Assembly: GCA_001829415.1 (NCBI GenBank) | Contig: MIBE01000010.1 | Span: 69,926 to 133,925, forward strand | Direction of reading: 5' to 3' | DNA length: 64,000 bases | From: Spirochaetes bacterium GWF1_51_8 | GTDB lineage: Bacteria; Spirochaetota; Brevinematia; Brevinematales; GWF1-51-8 | Part shown: in pieces, positions 42,978-62,529 of the stretch | How positions within the stretch are numbered: position 1 is the stretch's first letter | Layout: each line of letters starts with the position of its first letter | Translations under genes and position numbers: made by a program | The notes under the pieces: model-generated | Told to the model about the DNA's origin: nothing | Seen by the model: only the letters and a program-made list of their open reading frames with translations | Databases searched by the model: none

Positions 42978-43031
42978 ACAATTTCTCGCCCGAAGTTTGC
43001 CCATTTCAGAATCCTTGCTTATCCTATTGCG

Positions 43032-43511
43032 ATGGAGGATTCGATGAGAAATCTGCTGTCCAAGTTCAGCCTGAAAACGCAGACTCCCGTGCTGATCGTG
43101 AACCCGCCCGCGGAGTTCGCCGAGGGCCTCGCCGAATTCGAGGCGGCGACCGAGGTACACGGCGTTCCCGACGCCGGGACGAAATACGGCTTCGCGCTCC
43201 TTTTCGCGAAGGACGCCGCCGAACTGGAAAAGTACGCACCCGCCGTTCTGAATTCCTACGAGGGCGACGCGGTACTCTGGTTTGCTTATCCGAAAAAGAC
43301 GTCGAAGAAGTACAATTCCGACCTTTCACGCGACGAGGGCTGGAGGGTGCTCGGCAACGCCGGACTCGAGCCGGTCAGCCAGATCGCGGTCGACGACGAC
43401 TGGTCGGCGGTCCGTTTCCGCGCGGTGGGGTATATTAAGAAAATGATCCGGCCGGAGGGCGGGATGCTGAGCGAAGCCGGACGCGCCCGTGCGAAGAAAG
43501 ATAAAAAGTGA
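43032..43511 (+). CDS. Conserved hypothetical cytoplasmic protein
   Basis: 159 aa. Codon usage matches neighbouring genes. No motif that I can name. Confidence 0.5.
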   Translation: MEDSMRNLLSKFSLKTQTPVLIVNPPAEFAEGLAEFEAATEVHGVPDAGTKYGFALLFAKDAAELEKYAPAVLNSYEGDAVLWFAYPKKTSKKYNSDLSRDEGWRVLGNAGLEPVSQIAVDDDWSAVRFRAVGYIKKMIRPEGGMLSEAGRARAKKDKK

Positions 43512-43984
43512 CCAATCCCATACTCGGGTTTTTCCGAACTATCGGCCTATTCGTCGCCGGACGGGTAAAGTATCATACCGGAAGTAAGGGGCAAGTCCTC
43601 ACCATGGACGACGGTAAGAAGTTCACCGTATTCCGCCATGTCGTGATCCGTCCGGGGAAAAACGCGCCCGAGCCGCAGGCTGTGTTCGTTGTCCGTTTCC
43701 GCCCGAAGAAAATGTCCGTCCGCGCGAATATCCGTTTCTCCCTCCTCCCGATGATGATCTTTATGGGGTTTTCCGGCTTCCGTTCTAAGTACTGGGCGGT
43801 GGATTACGAGACCGGATTGTGCCAGGGGCTTTACGAATGGCAGACGGCCGCCGATGCGGAGAACTACAGCCGTTCGGTCGCGATGCGGTTCATGGCAAAA
43901 CGTTCCGACCCTGTGTCCGTTGAATGGAGGATAGTGGAAAAAGGAAAAGATAAGAAAAGTTTATTTGAGCTTAAAGACAAATAA
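43508..43984 (+). CDS. Hypothetical protein
   Basis: 158 aa. 4-nt overlap with the upstream gene suggests translational coupling. Confidence 0.5.
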   Translation: MTNPILGFFRTIGLFVAGRVKYHTGSKGQVLTMDDGKKFTVFRHVVIRPGKNAPEPQAVFVVRFRPKKMSVRANIRFSLLPMMIFMGFSGFRSKYWAVDYETGLCQGLYEWQTAADAENYSRSVAMRFMAKRSDPVSVEWRIVEKGKDKKSLFELKDK

Positions 43985-44167
43985 TCTCCAAGTAAGAATG
44001 CGTTTGCGATTCAGGCGGGAATGCGGTTTCCACGCCGGATTTGGGCTGTACTTCAATTCCACCAGGCCGAGGATGACGCCGATCACACAGATGAACGCGG
44101 ATAATCATAAAAAAGGTGAAAGAAACGGATTTACCCGAGATTGAAGAGATTATCAAGGAGAAGAGGA

Positions 44168-44428
44168 ATGATTTCATCGGCGAATGGAATAAGCATTTCG
44201 GAATATGAGGTCACAAATATCGAACGATTAGGATTTTGGCTGTATGTCGACGATACGGAATATTTCGTCAGTTTCGACCGGTTTCCCGCATTTAAAAACG
44301 CGCCCGTGGGGCAAATTCTGAATGTAAAACGCCTCGACCCTTCGCAATTCAACTGGCCCGATCTGGATATCGACGTCGATATCGAATCGTTGAGCGCACC
44401 GGACAAGTATCCGTTGGAATATAAGTAG
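44168..44428 (+). CDS. DUF2442-family small protein
   Basis: ATG 44168 follows AAGGAG. GFWLYVDDTEYFVSFDRFPAFKNAP...NWPDLDIDVDIESL is typical of DUF2442. The sequence just upstream reads like the C-terminal remnant of a DUF4160 partner (..FIGEWNKHFGI*). Confidence 0.65.
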   Translation: MISSANGISISEYEVTNIERLGFWLYVDDTEYFVSFDRFPAFKNAPVGQILNVKRLDPSQFNWPDLDIDVDIESLSAPDKYPLEYK

Positions 44429-44509
44429 AAAAAATCCGCATGAGTATTGTTATCGCATGGAGACTGCGGTAAGGCCGATGCGGCAGGCTTACTGTATTAA
44501 TAAAACTTC

Positions 44510-44588
44510 TTACAAAAACCTTTCGTCGAAAAACCGTTTCGCTTCCTTCACCAGCCTCTCGCGCTTCCCGAACAGCACCTTCGCGGGG
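44510..44588 (-). pseudogene. Detached duplicate of the last 79 nt of the DinG-like helicase gene
   Basis: Matches 45457-45535 with 3 mismatches. The minus frame reads ...AKVLFGKRERLVKEAKRFFDERFL*, against ...FFNERFL* in the intact gene. Confidence 0.85.
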
Positions 44589-44676: not shown

Positions 44677-45273
44677 TTACCATGTGATGATATAGGTACA
44701 ACTGTTAGTCCCGTTCTTTCGACAAGGCGCCGAATCAAGATGGGTGACTGAAGCTTTCAGTTCGAATTTTTTTGCCATTGCGGTGATGATTCCTTTATCA
44801 AAATCGCAGGGATAGGGATTGTTGCATTCGCTGATTATCATATTTTTACTGCTCAATCTCTCGAAGCCGTAATGCCCGATACCTTCCTTCATGTTTCCGG
44901 TGCTCGGATCGAAGAGCGGAATATTGTTTTTCCGGTGATTCATATGATACGCGACGTCGATAGATTTTATAGCGGTATCGATATCCTTGACCCACGGGGG
45001 AAAGATCGCGTTTTCAGGTATTTTTAATCCTATTTGGAAGAGAGTCCCGCTTCCTACTTCCTTTCCGATATTTTCGAATGCTTTCAGCCATTTTTCCTGA
45101 GAATACCATGCATCTTTGTTAATCACCGCTACGCCATCGGAACCTTTTTCTCCGATTCCCTGTTCAAGCAGATACTTTGATGCCATAATTTTAAAATTCC
45201 TGAACCCGTCAACAATAGAAAATACCGTCGTACCGTTTACCTCGATTCCGTTTTCAAATACCCTGTACTGCAT
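44677..45273 (-). CDS. Hypothetical protein (cassette gene controlled by the GTTTCTAT operator)
   Basis: 198 aa; MQYRVFENGIEVNGTTVF...CTYIITW. No motif that I recognise. GGAGGAAGG Shine-Dalgarno precedes the ATG. Confidence 0.6.
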   Translation of the reverse strand: MQYRVFENGIEVNGTTVFSIVDGFRNFKIMASKYLLEQGIGEKGSDGVAVINKDAWYSQEKWLKAFENIGKEVGSGTLFQIGLKIPENAIFPPWVKDIDTAIKSIDVAYHMNHRKNNIPLFDPSTGNMKEGIGHYGFERLSSKNMIISECNNPYPCDFDKGIITAMAKKFELKASVTHLDSAPCRKNGTNSCTYIITW

Positions 45274-45310: not shown

Positions 45311-45377
45311 ATAGAAAAACATAGTAACATGTTTCTATACATAGAAACATGTTACTATGCATAGAAACATTTGTCAA
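45311..45377 (-). promoter_or_regulatory. Promoter plus tandem palindromic operators of the cassette gene
   Basis: Minus strand: TTGACA (45377-45372), 17 nt, TAACAT (45354-45349). Palindromes GTTTCTATACATAGAAAC (45331-45348) and GTTACTATGCATAGAAAC (45351-45368), plus a degenerate unit at 45311-45328. Confidence 0.65.
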
Positions 45378-45456: not shown

Positions 45457-47937
45457 TTATAAAAACCTTTCGTTGAAAAACCGTTTCGCTTCCTTCACCA
45501 ACCTCTCGCGCTTCCCGAACAGCACCTTCGCGGGGGGGAGCGAGTTCAAAAAGTTACTGCCGTAGTTCTTCGTCTTCAAGCGGTTGTCCATGATCGCGAT
45601 CACGCCTTTGTCGGTCTTACTGCGGATCAGGCGGCCCATTCCCTGCTTGAGGCGGAGGATCGCGCGGGGCAGGCTGAAGCTGATGAACGAGTTGACACCC
45701 TTCGAGTCTAAGAGCGCGACCTTCGCGCGGTAGATCGGGTCGTCGGGATTGTCGAACGGGAGTTTCTCGATGATAACGCAGCGGAGGTTGTCGCCCCGGA
45801 TATCGATCCCCTCCCAGAAGCTCGATGTCGCGAAGAGGACGCTGTAGCCCCGGCTCTTCATCGTGTCGAGCAGGAGGTTGCGCGCGCGTTCGCCCTGACG
45901 GATCGGGAGGAGGCCGTGCTCCATCAGCTCGTTCTTCAGGAGGCCGTACATCTCGGTCAGCCGGAGGTAGGATGTGAACAGCGCGAGGACACCGCCCTGG
46001 CTCGCGAGGCAGAGGTCGCGGACAAACCCGGTCTTCTCGCCGGTCACCTTGCTGTGCTCCCCGCCGTCCTCGAGGATATAGATTTCCGCTTGTTTCCGGT
46101 AGTCGAACGGCGAGGGGAGCGAGAGTTCGAGCATCTCCTTGTTCGACGCCAAGTTCAGTCCGGTGCTCATCCGGAAATAATCGAACTTTTTATTGACCGA
46201 GAGCGTCGCCGAGGTGAAGATCGTGAAGTCCTTCTTGCCGAAGATCGAGTTCGCGAGGAAATCGCCGACCTCGAGCGGGCTGAAGGAGAAACGGATGTTC
46301 TTCGGGGTGACCTCTATCCATCGCACCTGCTCGGGCGTGGTTTCGGAGAGGAAGACCGTGTTGAAGATATCGCTCATCTCGATCAGGGTGTCGATCCGCG
46401 AACGGACGATACGGACGATGTCGGTATACGAGTTGTCGGTCGCGCTGTCGAACAACCGGTTCATGAGCGATGTCAGTTCCCCGACAAACTTATTGAGCAT
46501 GCCGAAGAGCGACTGGAGCTTGTCGCGCAGGTATGCGAAGTCTTTCGTGCCCCGGTAGACGTCGTCGATCCCGATTGTCGACGAGAACTCCGATCCCTTC
46601 CGTAAAACCTTCATAAACTCGTCGAAAAGCTCGTGCGACACACCCGCGACCGTTTTCAGCAGGTTGAGGAGCTGTTCGTAACTTTCGACCAGCTCGGGAT
46701 GCGCATGGATACCGCCCTTCCTCGCTACCAGAGTAATCAAGCCCGATTCACTGCTGTCGCGGCGCTTCTTGAAATAGAGCTTACGCAGGTGGTAAAAGAG
46801 GCTCTGGAACGAGAAGCTCCGGGAGAGCGAACGGAGCGCGGTGTCTTCTATATGGTGCGCTTCGTCGAACACGATTCCGGAGTAGAACGGCATGACGTTG
46901 CGGTAGGACTGGATATCGATCGACGAGAAGACGAGCGAATGGTTCGCGATGACGATCTGCGCCTTTTCCGCGCCGAGCCTCGCTTTATAATAGAAACACG
47001 CGCTGTAGTAACGGCACCGTTTGCGGTCGCACATCATGCTCTCGCTTCTGATCTCTTCCCATATCTCTTCCTTGACCTGCTCGGGGTACTCCCCACGGGT
47101 ACCGTTATGCCCGCTCCGCGACCAGAGCTCGATATCGTGCAGGAGCAGGCCCTCGTTCTCGCTCTCGAACAGGGAACTTTGTGTATCCTTGTCGCGCAGG
47201 AGGTCTGTGAGCCGTTTCCGGCAAAGGTAGTTTCCACGTCCGACCAATACCGCGTGATAGAGCGGTTTATTCAGGTACTTCATCACGACCCGTTCGACGA
47301 TCTGCATATCCTTTTCCGCGATCTGCTGCTGGAGATTGATCGTGTGGGTGGAGATCATCACGCGTTTTTTATTCTCTACCGCCCAAAGCGCGGCGGGGAT
47401 AAGGTACGAAAGTGATTTCCCGGTGCCCGTCCCGGCTTCACAGAGCAGTATCTTCGAGTCGTTGACAGCCCAGACAACGTGCGCGACCATATCGATCTGC
47501 TCGCCGCGCGGTTCGAAGTTCGCGATATTCTCCGAAAGGACGCCGTGGTCGCCGAACAGCCCCAGCACTTCCTCGTCCTTGAGGTAGACCCGCGAACGGG
47601 GCTGGAGGACGATATTGACCTCGGTGCATTCGTTATTGACGATATAGAAGCCGACCATCCTGTTCGCGAGAAGCGATGAGAGTTCGATATCTTCCACCGA
47701 CGGCACGGTGTTCCCCGACGGGTGATTGTGGATGACGACGTCGCCGGACAACGCTTCCATCATCGAGATGACGGTCGCGTCCTCGCTCCCGAACGACATC
47801 GGCGAGACCTCGACGGCTTTCCCGCTCCGGTCGACACTGCCGGAGAACGAGACTTCGTTGCCGCCGTTCTTGTCGATATATTCTACGATAGTCCTGATCG
47901 CGTCTTCGGAAAGGACCTGAGCTGCGTTTACTTTCAT
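45457..47937 (-). CDS. dinG: DinG/XPD-family Fe-S DNA helicase with an N-terminal RadC-like JAB/MPN domain
   Basis: 826 aa. JAMM motif HNHPSGNTVPSVED (47689-47730). Walker A AGTGTGKS, DEAH box VFDEAHH, four Cys of an XPD-type cluster (LCRK, MMCD, RCRYY, SACFY), and a C-terminal helicase_C_2-like region. Confidence 0.85.
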   Translation of the reverse strand: MKVNAAQVLSEDAIRTIVEYIDKNGGNEVSFSGSVDRSGKAVEVSPMSFGSEDATVISMMEALSGDVVIHNHPSGNTVPSVEDIELSSLLANRMVGFYIVNNECTEVNIVLQPRSRVYLKDEEVLGLFGDHGVLSENIANFEPRGEQIDMVAHVVWAVNDSKILLCEAGTGTGKSLSYLIPAALWAVENKKRVMISTHTINLQQQIAEKDMQIVERVVMKYLNKPLYHAVLVGRGNYLCRKRLTDLLRDKDTQSSLFESENEGLLLHDIELWSRSGHNGTRGEYPEQVKEEIWEEIRSESMMCDRKRCRYYSACFYYKARLGAEKAQIVIANHSLVFSSIDIQSYRNVMPFYSGIVFDEAHHIEDTALRSLSRSFSFQSLFYHLRKLYFKKRRDSSESGLITLVARKGGIHAHPELVESYEQLLNLLKTVAGVSHELFDEFMKVLRKGSEFSSTIGIDDVYRGTKDFAYLRDKLQSLFGMLNKFVGELTSLMNRLFDSATDNSYTDIVRIVRSRIDTLIEMSDIFNTVFLSETTPEQVRWIEVTPKNIRFSFSPLEVGDFLANSIFGKKDFTIFTSATLSVNKKFDYFRMSTGLNLASNKEMLELSLPSPFDYRKQAEIYILEDGGEHSKVTGEKTGFVRDLCLASQGGVLALFTSYLRLTEMYGLLKNELMEHGLLPIRQGERARNLLLDTMKSRGYSVLFATSSFWEGIDIRGDNLRCVIIEKLPFDNPDDPIYRAKVALLDSKGVNSFISFSLPRAILRLKQGMGRLIRSKTDKGVIAIMDNRLKTKNYGSNFLNSLPPAKVLFGKRERLVKEAKRFFNERFL

Positions 47938-57981: not shown

Positions 57982-58007
57982 GGGTATAATTCTTGAGGAG
58001 GATATTG

Positions 58008-60314
58008 ATGGATTCCAGCTTGTTTTTCTGGATAGAAGCCATCATCGCCGTATTCATGGGCTTATTGATGATACTTAATTACTTGAATTATAAAAAGAAA
58101 ACCGACACGGCTGATATATTTAAATCGCTTTTCTTCGTATTCATATTAATTCTTGTAAAGTCGGCTGTTTATATAGGAATTAACTTCACCGACGTGCTCT
58201 GGTTCGCGTTCGAAAAAGACAACGCGGTCGTAGTCGGCGATATCATTTTCGGTATCATCAAGCCCGAATACAACATGCCGAACCAGGTTCCCCCTCTGCC
58301 GGTGTATGAACTCAAGTTCTTCATCTGGCAGATCATGGAAACCCTCTTTATCATCGGATTGAGCTATGTCTTCATCCTCCGCCGCAAAAAAGCGGAAACG
58401 GACAAGGTCGGCGGCATCCGTATGATGAAGTGGCTCCAGGTAATCCTGCTCGCTCTTATCGCGCTCACGGTCGGTCTCCTTTCCATGCAGTCCCAATCCG
58501 CGGTACGTATCACGGAAGCGGTCAAGGAAAACACGGGCAACAACAGCGAAAAGTTCTTTGTGACCGAGAACGGGTGGGAAGTGATCGATCTCAGCACCGA
58601 TGACCCCGCGCCTTACCAGTTATTGAAGGACAAGGATAAAGAGACCCTGAGCGTAACGATGAACCTCTACGACTCCGGCATACCCGCGATTGAATTTATC
58701 AAAGGCTGGGCCGGGCGCGCTGTGCTCGTGCTCTGGAAAGTGCTCCTCATGGTCTTCGCGTTGCTCGCGATATCGTCAACGTTCGGGTATATCGCGAACC
58801 TGCTCGAATATATCGATAAGAACAAGAAGATACTCTATATTTACCTGTTCCTCCAGATCGTAGTCTATATCGGATCGACCGCTGTCAGTTATTACTCGAG
58901 CGGCATGGTCTGGTTCGCGATCGACCTATTGGGCCTCATCCTGTTCTCGGTATTCGCATACCGTGTGCACTCGCAGTACATCCATGATATCGAAGAAGCA
59001 GTGGAGAGCCTCGCGAACGAACGCGACCTGATCATCAAGTTGATGAAGGATATCAGCGCGATCATCGGCGCGGGTGAATTCGACCTCGATACGATCGTCA
59101 AGCAGATCGTGGATGCGTGTGTGACCGGCGCGAACTGCCGTGGGGGAACCGTGTTCCTTCGCGATGAAGTCACGAGCCGTCTCAATGTCAAGTATGTCAA
59201 CGGGCTTTATCCGCCGACCCGCTCGTTCAAGATGCTCGCCGGGATGACATTGACGGAATCCGTTATTATAGAAAAGCTGAAAAGTGAAAAGATAGCAGTG
59301 GGTGAAGGCCTTCTGGGTAAGGTCGCCGAGAGCGGCGAATTGATCTACATCCCGGATACGTTGAAGGACGAGTCGTTCGTACAGACTATTCCCGATACGA
59401 TGCTCGTGACCTCGTTCATCGCCGTGCCGTTGAAGAGCCAGGACGAAGTATTCGGCGTACTGTCTGTTGTCGATGACGCCCGCTCTTTCCTAGAAAGCGA
59501 CGTGAGCTTGATCGAGACCCTCGGAGAACAGGCCGCTATCACTATCAAACAGATCCAGATGTATAAAGAAATATTAGACAAGAAACAGGCTGAAAAGGAA
59601 TTGAGCGTTGCGGGTGAAATTCAGTCCTCGCTCACGCCTCATTCGTTCCCCGAAGCCGACAAGTATGAGATGTTCGCGTTCTCTATCCCCGCGAAAGGGG
59701 TAGGCGGCGACTACTACGATTACATCGATTTCGGAAATAACAAGATCGCGGTCACGATGTTCGACGTATCGGGAAAAGGCGTTCCCGCGGCTCTCATCAT
59801 GGTGATGATCCGGAGTATCTTACGCACCATCGCGTCACTCGACGAGGACACGAAGGACGTATTGACCAAGCTGAATAACACGATTTCGGAAGAAATAGTA
59901 GAAGACCGTTATGCAACTGGATTTTACTTGCTATTTGACGCGGAAAGGGGTATAATGAGTTATACCAATGCAGGTCACGGCCCGCTTTGTTTATACCGCA
60001 AGAGCAAGGACACATTCGAGTTTTTGGATACGGACGGGATGCCTGTGGGTATCATGTCGGGAATCGAGTTTGGACAGAACTATACGACTCTTGAAAAAGG
60101 GGACATCGCAATCCTCTACACCGATGGTATCACCGAAGCTATGAACCTGGAGCATGAGGAATACGGTATGGATAGCATGCAGGAAGTGGTAAGAGCTTGT
60201 AAGAATATGCCCGCTCAGGAAATAGCGAATAGAATTCTTGACGGTGTAAATCATTTTGTAAAATCTGCGCCGCAGCATGATGATGAAACATTACTTGTGT
60301 TGAAGATGAAATAA
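58008..60314 (+). CDS. Membrane-anchored GAF-SpoIIE/PP2C phosphatase
   Basis: ATG 58008 follows GAGGAGG. Multiple TM helices, a GAF-like region (GGTVFLRDE...LLGKVAESGE...AVPL), then GGDYYDY, FDVSGKGVPAAL, NAGHGP, YTDGITEA and DDETLLVL. Confidence 0.85.
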   Translation: MDSSLFFWIEAIIAVFMGLLMILNYLNYKKKTDTADIFKSLFFVFILILVKSAVYIGINFTDVLWFAFEKDNAVVVGDIIFGIIKPEYNMPNQVPPLPVYELKFFIWQIMETLFIIGLSYVFILRRKKAETDKVGGIRMMKWLQVILLALIALTVGLLSMQSQSAVRITEAVKENTGNNSEKFFVTENGWEVIDLSTDDPAPYQLLKDKDKETLSVTMNLYDSGIPAIEFIKGWAGRAVLVLWKVLLMVFALLAISSTFGYIANLLEYIDKNKKILYIYLFLQIVVYIGSTAVSYYSSGMVWFAIDLLGLILFSVFAYRVHSQYIHDIEEAVESLANERDLIIKLMKDISAIIGAGEFDLDTIVKQIVDACVTGANCRGGTVFLRDEVTSRLNVKYVNGLYPPTRSFKMLAGMTLTESVIIEKLKSEKIAVGEGLLGKVAESGELIYIPDTLKDESFVQTIPDTMLVTSFIAVPLKSQDEVFGVLSVVDDARSFLESDVSLIETLGEQAAITIKQIQMYKEILDKKQAEKELSVAGEIQSSLTPHSFPEADKYEMFAFSIPAKGVGGDYYDYIDFGNNKIAVTMFDVSGKGVPAALIMVMIRSILRTIASLDEDTKDVLTKLNNTISEEIVEDRYATGFYLLFDAERGIMSYTNAGHGPLCLYRKSKDTFEFLDTDGMPVGIMSGIEFGQNYTTLEKGDIAILYTDGITEAMNLEHEEYGMDSMQEVVRACKNMPAQEIANRILDGVNHFVKSAPQHDDETLLVLKMK

Positions 60315-60344
60315 CAAAATAGGATAATATTTCAGGAGGACCTT

Positions 60345-60683
60345 ATGGAAATAAACAGAAGAGAGTCGGGCGACGTCGTCATCTTTGACATCAACGGTGA
60401 AATCGACCTCTATAATGCCCCGGAAATTAAAGAAAAAATCAAAGAAGAAATGAATAACGGAAAAGTGAATATTATTATCAACCTCGATAAAGTAAGCTAT
60501 ATCGATAGCTCCGGTATCGGCGTGTTGATTTCCAGCCTTTCCAACCTGAAAAAGGTCGGCGGTGCGTTGAAACTGATAAATGTTTACGCGTCCGTCAGAA
60601 AGGTTTTCGAATTGACGAAACTCACCAGTTTCTTCGAGATCCACGATAGCGAAGACGACGCATTAGCGGCGTTCAATAACTAA
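60345..60683 (+). CDS. STAS-domain anti-sigma-factor antagonist (SpoIIAA/RsbV-like)
   Basis: 112 aa. YIDSSGIGVLIS contains the phosphorylatable Ser context. Lies directly downstream of the PP2C gene. Confidence 0.88.
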   Translation: MEINRRESGDVVIFDINGEIDLYNAPEIKEKIKEEMNNGKVNIIINLDKVSYIDSSGIGVLISSLSNLKKVGGALKLINVYASVRKVFELTKLTSFFEIHDSEDDALAAFNN

Positions 60684-60777
60684 TCGGGACCACGGTTAAA
60701 TGGGTGTATCTTTTGTGTCCGTCTCCTTTTGTTTTGCTTGAGTTCGATCTCTCGGGAATATTTACATTTCATATAGA

Positions 60778-60804
60778 AGAGGCTTGAAAAGGCCTCTTTT
60801 TTTA
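60778..60804 (+). terminator. Rho-independent terminator after the STAS gene
   Basis: AGAGGCT-TGAAAA-GGCCTCT followed by TTTTTTT. Confidence 0.8.
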
Positions 60805-60824: not shown

Positions 60825-60871
60825 TTTACAGGATTTATAATCCTTTATATAATGTTTCTATGTATAGAAAC
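60825..60871 (+). promoter_or_regulatory. trpR-like/trpB2 promoter with palindromic operator
   Basis: TTTACA (60825-60830), 17 nt, TATAAT (60848-60853), immediately followed by GTTTCTATGTATAGAAAC (60854-60871). Confidence 0.65.
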
Positions 60872-60884
60872 GGCAGACGTGGCA

Positions 60885-61160
60885 ATGGATCTTTATGACG
60901 CGTTTCTCAGTATTGAGAATAAAGGGGACATCGAAAAACTGTTCGACGAACTGTTTACGCCGTCGGAGAAGAAAAGACTCTTATTGAGATGGAGACTGCT
61001 CGGGATGCTTAGGCGCCGGACGCCGCAAAGGAAGATTGCGTCGGAATTGGGGATTAGCCTCTGCAAGATCACCCGCGGCGCGGGGATACTCAGGAAAAAA
61101 GATTCGTTATTATATAGAATACTCAGTGAAGGAGATAAAGATGGAAATTCAGAAGATTGA
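60885..61160 (+). CDS. TrpR-like (YerC/YecD family) DNA-binding protein
   Basis: ORF 60852..61160 trimmed to MDLYDAFL (ATG 60885). [20 protein letters not shown]...[18 protein letters not shown] is the TrpR-family HTH pattern. Confidence 0.75.
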
Positions 61161-62496
61161 TCTCGCCCAGAAAGATATGCCGCGCAAGTGGTATAATATC
61201 CAGGCCGATCTGCCCAAACCTCTCGATCCGCCGTTAGGCCCCGACGGGAATCCTGTCACCCCGCAGCAGCTTGCGGCGATTTTCCCGATGGGTGTTATCG
61301 AGCAGGAAGTATCCACGGAGCGTTGGATCGATATCCCCGAAGATGTTCTCGACGTTTATGCCCGTTGGAGACCCGCGCCAATTTTCCGCGCTATTCATCT
61401 TGAAAAAGCGCTCGGCACTCCCGCGAAAATATACTATAAATATGAAGGTTGTTCGCCCGCCGGATCGCACAAGCCGAATACCTCGGTCGCGCAGGCGTAT
61501 TACAATAAGAAGGAAGGCGTTAAGCGTATAACGACCGAAACCGGAGCAGGTCAGTGGGGCAGCGCGCTTGCGCTTGCCGGCGCTCTCTTCGGTATCGAAG
61601 TCCGGGTCTATATGGTGCGCACCAGCTACGACTCCAAACCCTACCGCAAGATGATGATGAGCACATGGGGCGCGGAATGTTTCCCCAGCCCGAGCGATAA
61701 GACGGAATACGGCCGCAAGGTACTTGCGCAGGACCCGAATTGTCCCGGAAGCCTCGGAATGGCTATTTCGGAAGCTGTCGAAGAAGCGGCGTCCCGTAAG
61801 GATACCAATTACTCCCTCGGAAGCGTGCTGAACCATGTCCTCATGCACCAGACAATCATCGGTCTCGAGTGTAAGGCACAGCTCAAGCAGATCAACGTCT
61901 ATCCCGATGTCGTGATCGGATGTGTCGGCGGCGGAAGCAACTTCGCCGGCATCGCATTTCCTTATCTTTATGACAAATTGACCGAAAATAAAAAGGTGGA
62001 TATTATCGCCGTCGAGCCGCGTTCGTGCCCGACGATCACGAAGGGTATCTACGATTACGATTTCGGCGATACAGCCGGGATGGCGCCGATTGTGAAAATG
62101 TACACGTTGGGGCATACGTTTATGCCGCCGGCCATTCACGCGGGCGGGCTCCGTTACCACGGTATGGCGCCGCTGGTAAGCGCACTCGCCAACCAGAAAC
62201 TGATCGAAGCGCGCGCGTATCACCAGACGGAAGTGTTCGAAGCGGGCGTACTCTTTGCGAGAACTGAGGGAATGGTTCCCGCGCCGGAAACCACCCATGC
62301 CTTGAAATGCGCTATCGAAGAAGCGAAAAAGGCGAAAGAGGAAGGAAAAGAGAAGACCATCCTGTTCAATTTCAGCGGTCACGGTATTTTCGATTTGGCT
62401 TCCTACGACAAATTTTTGAGCGGACAGCTCGAAGATTACGAGTATCCTGAAGAAGAGATACAACGAGCCCTAAAAATATTACCTTTTAAGAACTAA
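61141..62496 (+). CDS. trpB: Tryptophan synthase beta chain, TrpB2 type
   Basis: ORF trimmed to [20 protein letters not shown] (ATG 61141). [10 protein letters not shown] carries the PLP Lys, with [11 protein letters not shown] and [11 protein letters not shown]. Overlaps the trpR-like stop by 20 nt. Confidence 0.88.
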
Positions 62497-62499
62497 TTG

Positions 62500-62529
62500 A
62501 AAAGGGGCGTTAAGCCCCTTTTCTTTTTT
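62500..62529 (+). terminator. Rho-independent terminator after trpB2
   Basis: AAAAGGGGC-GTTAA-GCCCCTTTT followed by CTTTTTT. Confidence 0.8.

Follow-up and report, generated by a model that had tools for sequence, protein, structure and literature searches.

We analyzed a 64,000-nucleotide (nt) window, the whole stretch of DNA described above, from a Brevinematales spirochaete, and focused on an 18-bp palindrome (the box) found at two of its promoters: once at an operon encoding a TrpR-family repressor and a TrpB2-type tryptophan synthase beta-like enzyme (trpR-trpB2), and twice at a gene for a 198-amino-acid (198-aa) protein. The explanation that best accounts for the whole, and that we consider likely, is that the two units share a TrpR operator, which appears to have been reused at the 198-aa promoter in the layout of a repressor site. 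A preliminary description of this DNA, made from its letters alone, had proposed such a reuse, and comparative genomics supports it. The elements of the two promoters and the genes that they serve are as follows.

45372-45377, minus strand: -35 hexamer TTGACA of the 198-aa gene (promoter scan)
45351-45368: O2, the distal predicted TrpR box, with one mismatch (in the GTTACTAT half), filling the -35/-10 spacer
45349-45354, minus strand: -10 hexamer TAACAT of the 198-aa gene, after a 17-nt spacer (promoter scan)
45331-45348: O1, the promoter-proximal predicted TrpR box, GTTTCTATGTATAGAAAC in the direction of transcription, with AT on both sides, abutting the -10 hexamer
45319-45360, minus strand: 42-bp palindrome arising from the box array; as RNA, a 19-pair hairpin followed by UUUUUCUAU
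45311-45328: half-site-like 8-mers, ATAGAAAA and ATAGTAAC on the plus strand, which continue the 10-bp register without forming a palindromic box
44677-45273, minus strand: 198-aa gene, predicted H-NOX/V4R-like fold, no Pfam or NCBIfam family
60825-60853, plus strand: trpR-trpB2 promoter TTTACA-17-TATAAT (promoter scan, 11/12 matches)
60854-60871: predicted TrpR box at the trpR promoter, abutting the -10 hexamer; its position is kept in the related loci L081-L085, where the flanks have diverged
60885-61160, plus strand: TrpR-family repressor, 91 aa, recognition helix SLCKITRG
61138-62496, plus strand: TrpB2-type tryptophan synthase beta-like enzyme (NF009057, 747 bits)

The window was searched in full for GTTWCTAT-N2-ATAGWAAC, and even at up to two mismatches only three matches were found: at 45331-45348 (GTTTCTATACATAGAAAC), 45351-45368 (GTTACTATGCATAGAAAC), and 60854-60871 (GTTTCTATGTATAGAAAC). 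Dinucleotide-preserving shuffles of the window contained a mean of 0.03 matches each, and none of 100 reached three; the 8-mer ATAGAAAC by itself is enriched as well (10 copies, 1.5 expected). Along the direction of transcription, O1 is identical to the trpR box at 18/18 positions, each of the two abuts its own -10 hexamer, and the gap from the -35 hexamer to the box is 23 nt in both cases. O1 carries the full 22-bp extended consensus (AT-box-AT) described below, and O2, spaced 20 bp from it, has the same complete AT flanks. In transcription direction, the region upstream of the 198-aa gene reads TTGACA-aat-[GTTTCTATGCATAGTAAC]-AT-[GTTTCTATGTATAGAAAC]-AT-GTTACTAT-GT-TTTTCTAT.

The promoter assignments of the preliminary description were borne out at both loci. 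The perfect palindrome directly follows the TATAAT of the trpR-like gene, which overlaps the TrpB2-type trpB by 23 nt, and the motif recurs twice in front of the 198-aa gene, whose promoter, TTGACA-17-TAACAT (45377-45349, minus strand), matches at 10/12 positions and is the top candidate of the promoter scan in its region. The last 4 bp of O2 are the start of its -10 hexamer, and O1 covers its expected transcription start, predicted near 45342. The degenerate third unit claimed at 45311-45328 did not hold up: in the direction of transcription this segment is GTTACTAT-GT-TTTTCTAT, in which both half-sites are of the left type and point the same way, and it differs from the box by more than five mismatches. 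The array as a whole is a 20-bp tandem duplication as well as a palindrome, and the 10-bp alternation of half-sites that had been described is present.

To examine the box beyond the window, we turned to orthologous trpR-trpB2 loci (L081-L085, which encode the closest TrpR homologues, at 59-69% identity) and to public metagenome contigs, which were scanned for the exact sequence GTTTCTAYNNRTAGAAAC and yielded at least 120 loci. In L081-L085, both the trpR-trpB2 pair and the box are kept while the surrounding promoter sequence has diverged; the box takes the form GTTTCTAC-GT/AT-ATAGAAAC right after TATAAT, or GTTTCTAT-GA-ATAGAAAC right before the gene. Among the 120 metagenome loci listed, the directly flanking gene is trpE, trpD, trpB/trpB2, or trpR in 42 (TrpE 16, TrpB/TrpB2 14, TrpR 9, TrpD 6), and two further listed loci adjoin a gene for the tryptophan ABC-transporter binding protein TrpX (239 bits). 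Family models confirm these identities, with 492 bits for anthranilate synthase I TrpE and 751 bits for TrpB2, as well as TrpD domains. The remaining intergenic matches adjoin miscellaneous genes and 28 of the matches listed lie inside long open reading frames; both sets look like background. The small regulon that the preliminary description predicted is therefore not a private one, since the box also stands at trpE, trpD, trpB2, trpX, and trpR across metagenomes.

The box also has a preferred placement relative to promoter elements: TTGAC occurs within 40 nt on the promoter side of 35/45 trp-linked sites, versus 1/45 on the mirror side, and the gaps from the -35 element to the box fall into classes of 23-24 nt (the commonest), 15-16 nt, and 11-12 nt, which implies that the box covers the +1 position, covers the -10 hexamer, or supplies the -10 from its TATA-rich center. 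The extended consensus at the trp-linked sites is AT-box-AT, 22 bp in length. Second boxes are common at trp promoters elsewhere: about eight loci have them spaced 18 bp apart, several 20-22 bp, and others 49 bp. In L111, L123, L192, L203, and L206, tandem boxes abut each other, with a period of 18 bp, in front of trpR-trpB2, trpB2, or trpE. Tandem operators thus appear typical of this regulon, but because their spacing is mostly 18 bp, the 20-bp helical register of the preliminary description, unlike its 10-bp alternation, does not stand as a conserved constraint. The conserved position, the association with trp genes, and the promoter placement lead us to read the palindrome as a TrpR operator, and these comparisons strongly support AT-GTTTCTAT-N2-ATAGAAAC-AT as the predicted operator of a widespread TrpR clade with the helix SLCK[IV]TRG.

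The regulator itself fits this assignment. The TrpR-like protein scores 55.3 bits against PF01371 (cutoff 27), covering 79 of 88 model positions, and its phmmer alignment to TrpR chains in the PDB places FTPSE / LRWRL / ITRG over LTPDE / TRVRI / ITRG. In E. coli TrpR, residues T44, R54, R84, and G85 contact tryptophan; the equivalents of these four are retained in the spirochaete protein, and those of T81 and S88 are changed (to K and I, respectively). The recognition helix reads SLCK[IV]TRG in 22/22 TrpR homologues adjacent to a box, counted among the matches listed, the window, and its relatives; this differs from GIATITRG of E. coli, so a different reading head would match a different operator. 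The preliminary description had left the regulator as TrpR/YerC-like. Its TrpR half stands, on the PF01371 match and the trp genes at the boxes; a YerC/HisR identity was rejected, because the protein scores 26.7 bits against the YerC/YecD model TIGR02531 (cutoff 42.2), the genes flanking the box are trp genes, and the motif is other than TTTA-N6-TAAA (PMC9413887). Judged from sequence, the regulator is a true tryptophan-regulon TrpR of a distinct, non-E. coli-type clade. Gene callers start the TrpR homologues at an ATG of the -10/box junction (TATAATGTTTC; position 60852 in the window, 10001 in L081, 7931 in L083, and 2015 in L084), which gives a 103-aa product; the 91-aa NCBI call, starting at 60885, is more plausible. 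Its operon partner is a clear TrpB2, with 747 bits against NF009057 (cutoff 366) versus 153 bits against the canonical trpB model TIGR00263.

We infer that the TrpR-like protein binds these boxes, that tryptophan is its co-repressor, and that the outcome is repression. When tryptophan is plentiful, tryptophan-bound TrpR dimers on the boxes would keep RNA polymerase out; when it is scarce, trpR-trpB2 and the 198-aa gene would both be derepressed. The box that abuts the -10 hexamer of trpR-trpB2 would give autoregulation of trpR, while O1 and O2 would occupy the start region and the spacer/-10 region of a sigma-70-type promoter. The 198-aa gene, which lies downstream of a DinG/YoaA-type helicase gene and has a strong Shine-Dalgarno sequence, forms a monocistronic unit because it has a promoter and a terminator of its own. 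Repression by tryptophan-bound TrpR appears to be the best reading because O1 is identical to the trpR box and takes the same position relative to the -35 and -10 hexamers; classical repression is also the simplest model, given the biosynthesis and uptake targets elsewhere, the overlap with the core promoter, and the retained tryptophan-contact residues. The 198-aa gene would then probably be switched on when tryptophan runs low.

The proposed system corresponds to the TrpR repressor-operator mechanism of E. coli, in a layout that recalls the trpRBA operon of Chlamydia, and would differ from these in operator, recognition helix, spacing, and its partner TrpB2. Like the spirochaete protein, E. 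coli TrpR is a small PF01371 repressor with an 18-22-bp palindrome over the -10/+1 region, autoregulation, and tandem dimer sites, and its operators (trpEDCBA, aroH, trpR, mtr) likewise define a regulon of tryptophan biosynthesis and uptake genes. The tandem sites of E. coli TrpR overlap, with a spacing of 8 bp, unlike those of the present clade, which are 18-22 bp apart. The recognition helices differ as described above, trpR here shares an operon with trpB2, and the operator is GTTTCTAT-N2-ATAGAAAC rather than the E. coli sequence TGTAcTnGTnnACnAgTACA (PMC9413887). In Chlamydia trachomatis, as here, trpR heads an operon that also contains a trpB gene, and TrpR represses from a promoter upstream of trpR (PMC7755916); unlike trpRBA, the spirochaete operon has a stand-alone TrpB2 without trpA, no intergenic region (the two genes overlap), and nothing that points to YtgR-type control. 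HisR (YerC/YecD) belongs to the same family and resembles the present case in its 20-bp palindromic operator and frequent autoregulation, but histidine is its signal, his genes are its targets, and its site is cacTTTA-N6-TAAAgtg (PMC9413887).

The setting of the 198-aa gene differs from that of trpR-trpB2, and bears on how its boxes are to be understood. The features that define this setting, together with the remaining features of the two units, are the following.

45457-47937, minus strand: DinG/YoaA-type helicase gene whose product has a RadC/JAB-like segment at its N-terminus; conserved, with synteny, in Brevinematales
45457-45535: first copy of the direct repeat, formed by the final 79 bp of the helicase gene with its stop codon
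44624-44654, minus strand: intrinsic-terminator-like hairpin and T-run at the end of the 198-aa unit
44510-44588: second copy of the direct repeat, which duplicates the 3' end of the helicase gene and lies just past the terminator of the 198-aa unit
60775-60800: terminator of the gene upstream of trpR
62499-62523, plus strand: terminator-like hairpin closing the trpR-trpB2 operon

The 79-bp direct repeats are 96% identical, lie 947 bp apart from start to start, and exactly bracket the promoter, the 198-aa gene, and its terminator. L208, the nearest available relative (74% identity in the helicase), has the same succession of genes from GAF-SpoIIE through the helicase to cvpA, but its helicase-cvpA interval measures 563 bp, versus ~2.5 kb in the window, and lacks the 198-aa gene, a DUF2442 gene, two unknown genes of ~158 aa, and any box. 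The variable region of the window (42978-44500) holds the DUF2442 gene (44141-44428, plus strand) and the overlapping unknowns (43032-43511, 159 aa; 43508-43984, 158 aa), whose products have no significant family match. Arrival of the 198-aa gene by a lineage-specific insertion implies that its place in the tryptophan regulon would be a recent recruitment. In the helicase, the RadC/JAB match is weak (residues 67-92); PF04002 is also annotated in many of its homologues, Geobacter relatives among them, and this points to a conserved JAB-helicase fusion.

Several results weigh against reuse of a TrpR operator at the 198-aa promoter, at least as a functional arrangement. At up to three mismatches, the box is present in none of 83 loci of 198-aa homologues (L001-L080, L086, L087, and L210), and no 198-aa homologue occurs in any of the 120 box-carrying metagenome loci listed; by this comparison, membership of the 198-aa gene in the regulon is not conserved. 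The link between TrpB2 and the 198-aa protein that the preliminary description drew accordingly survives as a box shared in this lineage and not as a general one. Because the gene sits in an insertion, its boxes could owe their presence to transport with it or to copying, and not to selection. The identity of the co-repressor is likewise less firm, since the TrpR-like protein scores 42.1 bits against the NCBIfam TrpR equivalog TIGR01321, below its cutoff of 67.25. RNA folding of the array gives -27.5 kcal/mol (z = -6.8), so that the sense strand downstream of the helicase gene carries a stable hairpin resembling a terminator. The insertion is the basis of an alternative that we consider unlikely yet by no means negligible, namely that the 198-aa boxes are a by-product of insertion, such as a copied promoter fragment, which may bind TrpR without any functional tie of the protein to tryptophan. 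The unit lies between direct repeats and is missing from the closest relative, the link is seen in no other genome sampled, and the array amounts to a plain tandem duplication of 20 bp, all as this alternative would have it. On the other hand, both boxes are intact and correctly placed, with full consensus flanks, on a strong promoter whose unit has its own terminator. The 198-aa promoter was also considered as a copy of the trpR promoter, and this was rejected: similarity between the two stops at the box and so gives no sign of a copied segment. The by-product alternative in any case concerns adaptive meaning and not mechanism.

The folding result raises a different alternative, that the array serves mainly as a nucleic-acid hairpin, either an intrinsic terminator against helicase read-through or a cruciform, and that its likeness to a trpR box is secondary. 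A terminator scan does pick a stem of 19 pairs at 45360-45319 (minus strand), with TTTTTCTAT after it, about 100 nt past the stop codon of the helicase, and some boxes elsewhere lie in longer palindromes: in the trpE leaders of L100, L118, L122, L153, L188, L190, and L193, the box is embedded in a longer perfect palindrome with 5-12 extra complementary bp on each side, and these flanks vary between loci yet stay complementary, like a covarying stem, so that a hairpin is possibly superimposed on the operator there. Any tandem array of palindromes would fold in this way, however, and the stem is AU-rich, with only 5/19 G-C pairs; Rfam searches of both regions returned only sub-threshold matches to generic hairpins. 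A terminator role also leaves unexplained the 18/18 identity, the 22-bp consensus flanks, and the exact placement on the -35 and -10 hexamers, and transcription is expected to start inside the box, so that the transcript would lack the whole palindrome and the element would act as DNA rather than as an RNA hairpin. We therefore regard this alternative as improbable, while noting that the two roles are compatible: the hairpin could stop read-through from the helicase gene, so that expression of the 198-aa gene would depend on the TrpR-controlled promoter in front of it. It is highly improbable that the palindrome is bound by another regulator of tryptophan genes and not by the adjacent TrpR-like protein. 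Many box-carrying trpE and trpD loci do lack trpR on the retrieved fragment, but in 22 loci, including the window and its four closest relatives, a TrpR homologue lies directly beside the box in an autoregulation-type arrangement, all 22 share one recognition helix that is unlike that of E. coli, in step with the different operator, and a palindrome of 18-22 bp suits the TrpR family (PMC9413887).

If a TrpR operator is shared by the two units, the 198-aa protein would be a member of the local tryptophan regulon, and its family is informative about what such a member may do. At 90% identity the family forms more than 900 clusters, and about 1,000 representatives are counted at 50%; it occurs in 499 species genomes, and those listed belong to Spirochaetota (including termite-gut Treponema), Myxococcota, Nitrospirota, Clostridia, Bacteroidota, and Synergistaceae, with members 55-70% identical across phyla. 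No Pfam or NCBIfam model matches it: the H-NOX model PF07700 (HNOB) matched none of 32 family members at expectation values (E) up to 10, the V4R model PF02830 gave a weak match to 1/32 (E = 0.0049) and no significant similarity to the window protein, and a profile search of PDB sequences with the family returned nothing meaningful. The structure prediction that the preliminary description called for gave a confident AlphaFold2 model, with a predicted local distance difference test (pLDDT) score of 95.8. Among its PDB matches found by Foldseek, H-NOX proteins and soluble guanylate cyclase take all of the top 34 places (E from 2.5e-5, TM scores of 0.5-0.6), followed further down the list by AxCeSD and subunits of TRAPP. 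The modeled fold is thus H-NOX/V4R-like, and H-NOX, V4R, and TRAPPC3 form one structural superfamily (PMC10933270).

Invariant residues of the family include Y109, H110, N112, H113, and R114 (a YH-x-NHR motif at 109-114), C150, C184, and C192; C156 and H178 are nearly invariant, giving the Cys/His pattern C156(C150)...H178-x5-C184-x7-C192. The alignment offers candidates for haem motifs, with H110 or H113 as a proximal His and Y135-x-[FY]-x-R139, in which Y135 is invariant and R139 the consensus, as a possible counterpart of YxSxR. Bacterial H-NOX proteins (Tt, So, Vc) resemble the 198-aa protein in their size of ~190 aa and in being encoded by stand-alone genes beside, or fused to, histidine kinases, GGDEF proteins, and chemoreceptors. 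The C-x7-C spacing, seen here as a sequence pattern only, matches the zinc site C139/H161/C164/C172 of Shewanella H-NOX (PMC7108781) and is shared with the zinc site Cys151/Glu172/Cys177/Cys185 of DmpR (PMC7264223). Unlike H-NOX, the protein has no PF07700 match, its identity to H-NOX is 11-18%, and the proximal His and YxSxR are candidates only. The V4R domains of DmpR, MopR, PoxR, and XylR belong to the same superfamily as H-NOX and TRAPPC3 (PMC10933270), and a His in the V4R pocket positions the aromatic ligand (PMC7264223); unlike these regulators, the 198-aa protein has no AAA+ or DNA-binding output domain.

In ~20/82 loci, a hybrid histidine kinase, a chemoreceptor, a response regulator-GGDEF protein, or a Ser/Thr kinase-SpoIIE protein is encoded within ~100 bp on the same strand, and genes of the family often overlap such signalling neighbors by a few bases. 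Members are also fused, mostly as the C-terminal domain, to response regulator-HisKA-HATPase, Cache-HAMP-MCP, MCP, Ser/Thr kinase, and HisKA segments. This kinase and chemoreceptor context and these fusions point to a signalling or sensor module rather than an enzyme of tryptophan metabolism. Of the functions raised in the preliminary description, sensing agrees with both fold and context, while there is no support for an enzyme acting in tryptophan or serine metabolism. Possible ligands are haem with a gas, a redox cue acting through the Cys site, and an aromatic compound. As a speculation to which we attach little probability, the protein may be the founder of an H-NOX/V4R-like signalling family present in about 500 species, and in this spirochaete it may be made only under tryptophan limitation because it senses an aromatic, tryptophan-related cue such as indole (the substrate of the co-regulated TrpB2) and signals to a kinase, phosphatase, or chemotaxis partner, so that tryptophan starvation would be coupled to behavior.

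The predicted operator AT-GTTTCTAT-N2-ATAGAAAC-AT and the helix SLCK[IV]TRG define a TrpR clade that extends across many uncultured phyla. No description of the box, the helix, or the trpR-trpB2 operon was found in the searchable literature, and Rodionov 2004 (PMC545781) does not mention a TrpR regulon. Very often, stand-alone trpB2 follows trpR in a two-gene operon under the box, and an earlier neighborhood survey had found no second conserved gene neighborhood for trpB2 (PMC1854888). TrpB2 would thereby be placed in a tryptophan-repressed regulon, which bears on the debate over its role; trpE and trpD, which were also looked for in the 64-kb window, were not found there. The 198-aa family, for its part, appears to be a widespread and unnamed H-NOX/V4R-like signalling domain, and tryptophan limitation would be one natural condition in which a member is predicted to be expressed, a handle for finding its ligand.

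The neighborhood of the operon offers some further observations. Directly upstream of trpR-trpB2, the window encodes a partner-switching pair (57993-60683) that consists of a GAF-SpoIIE phosphatase with a STAS protein, and the order GAF-SpoIIE/STAS/trpR-trpB2 is conserved in L081, L083, L084, and L208. Homologues of the 198-aa gene adjoin genes for SpoIIE-type proteins in L032 and L087, and the GAF-SpoIIE/STAS pair is a possible partner of the 198-aa protein. At the start of the GAF-SpoIIE gene (58022-58039) lies a near-match to the box, GTTTTTCTGGATAGAAGC, with three mismatches, which is kept in relatives (position 7165 in L081 and 5092 in L083), probably as coding sequence and not as an operator. 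Two metagenome loci (L116, 167-233; L176, 3594-3660) have a pair of exact boxes at a distance of 49 bp, between which lies a weaker third one; the gene that follows encodes a 98-aa Cys-rich protein without a family match and is possibly another non-trp target of this TrpR clade.

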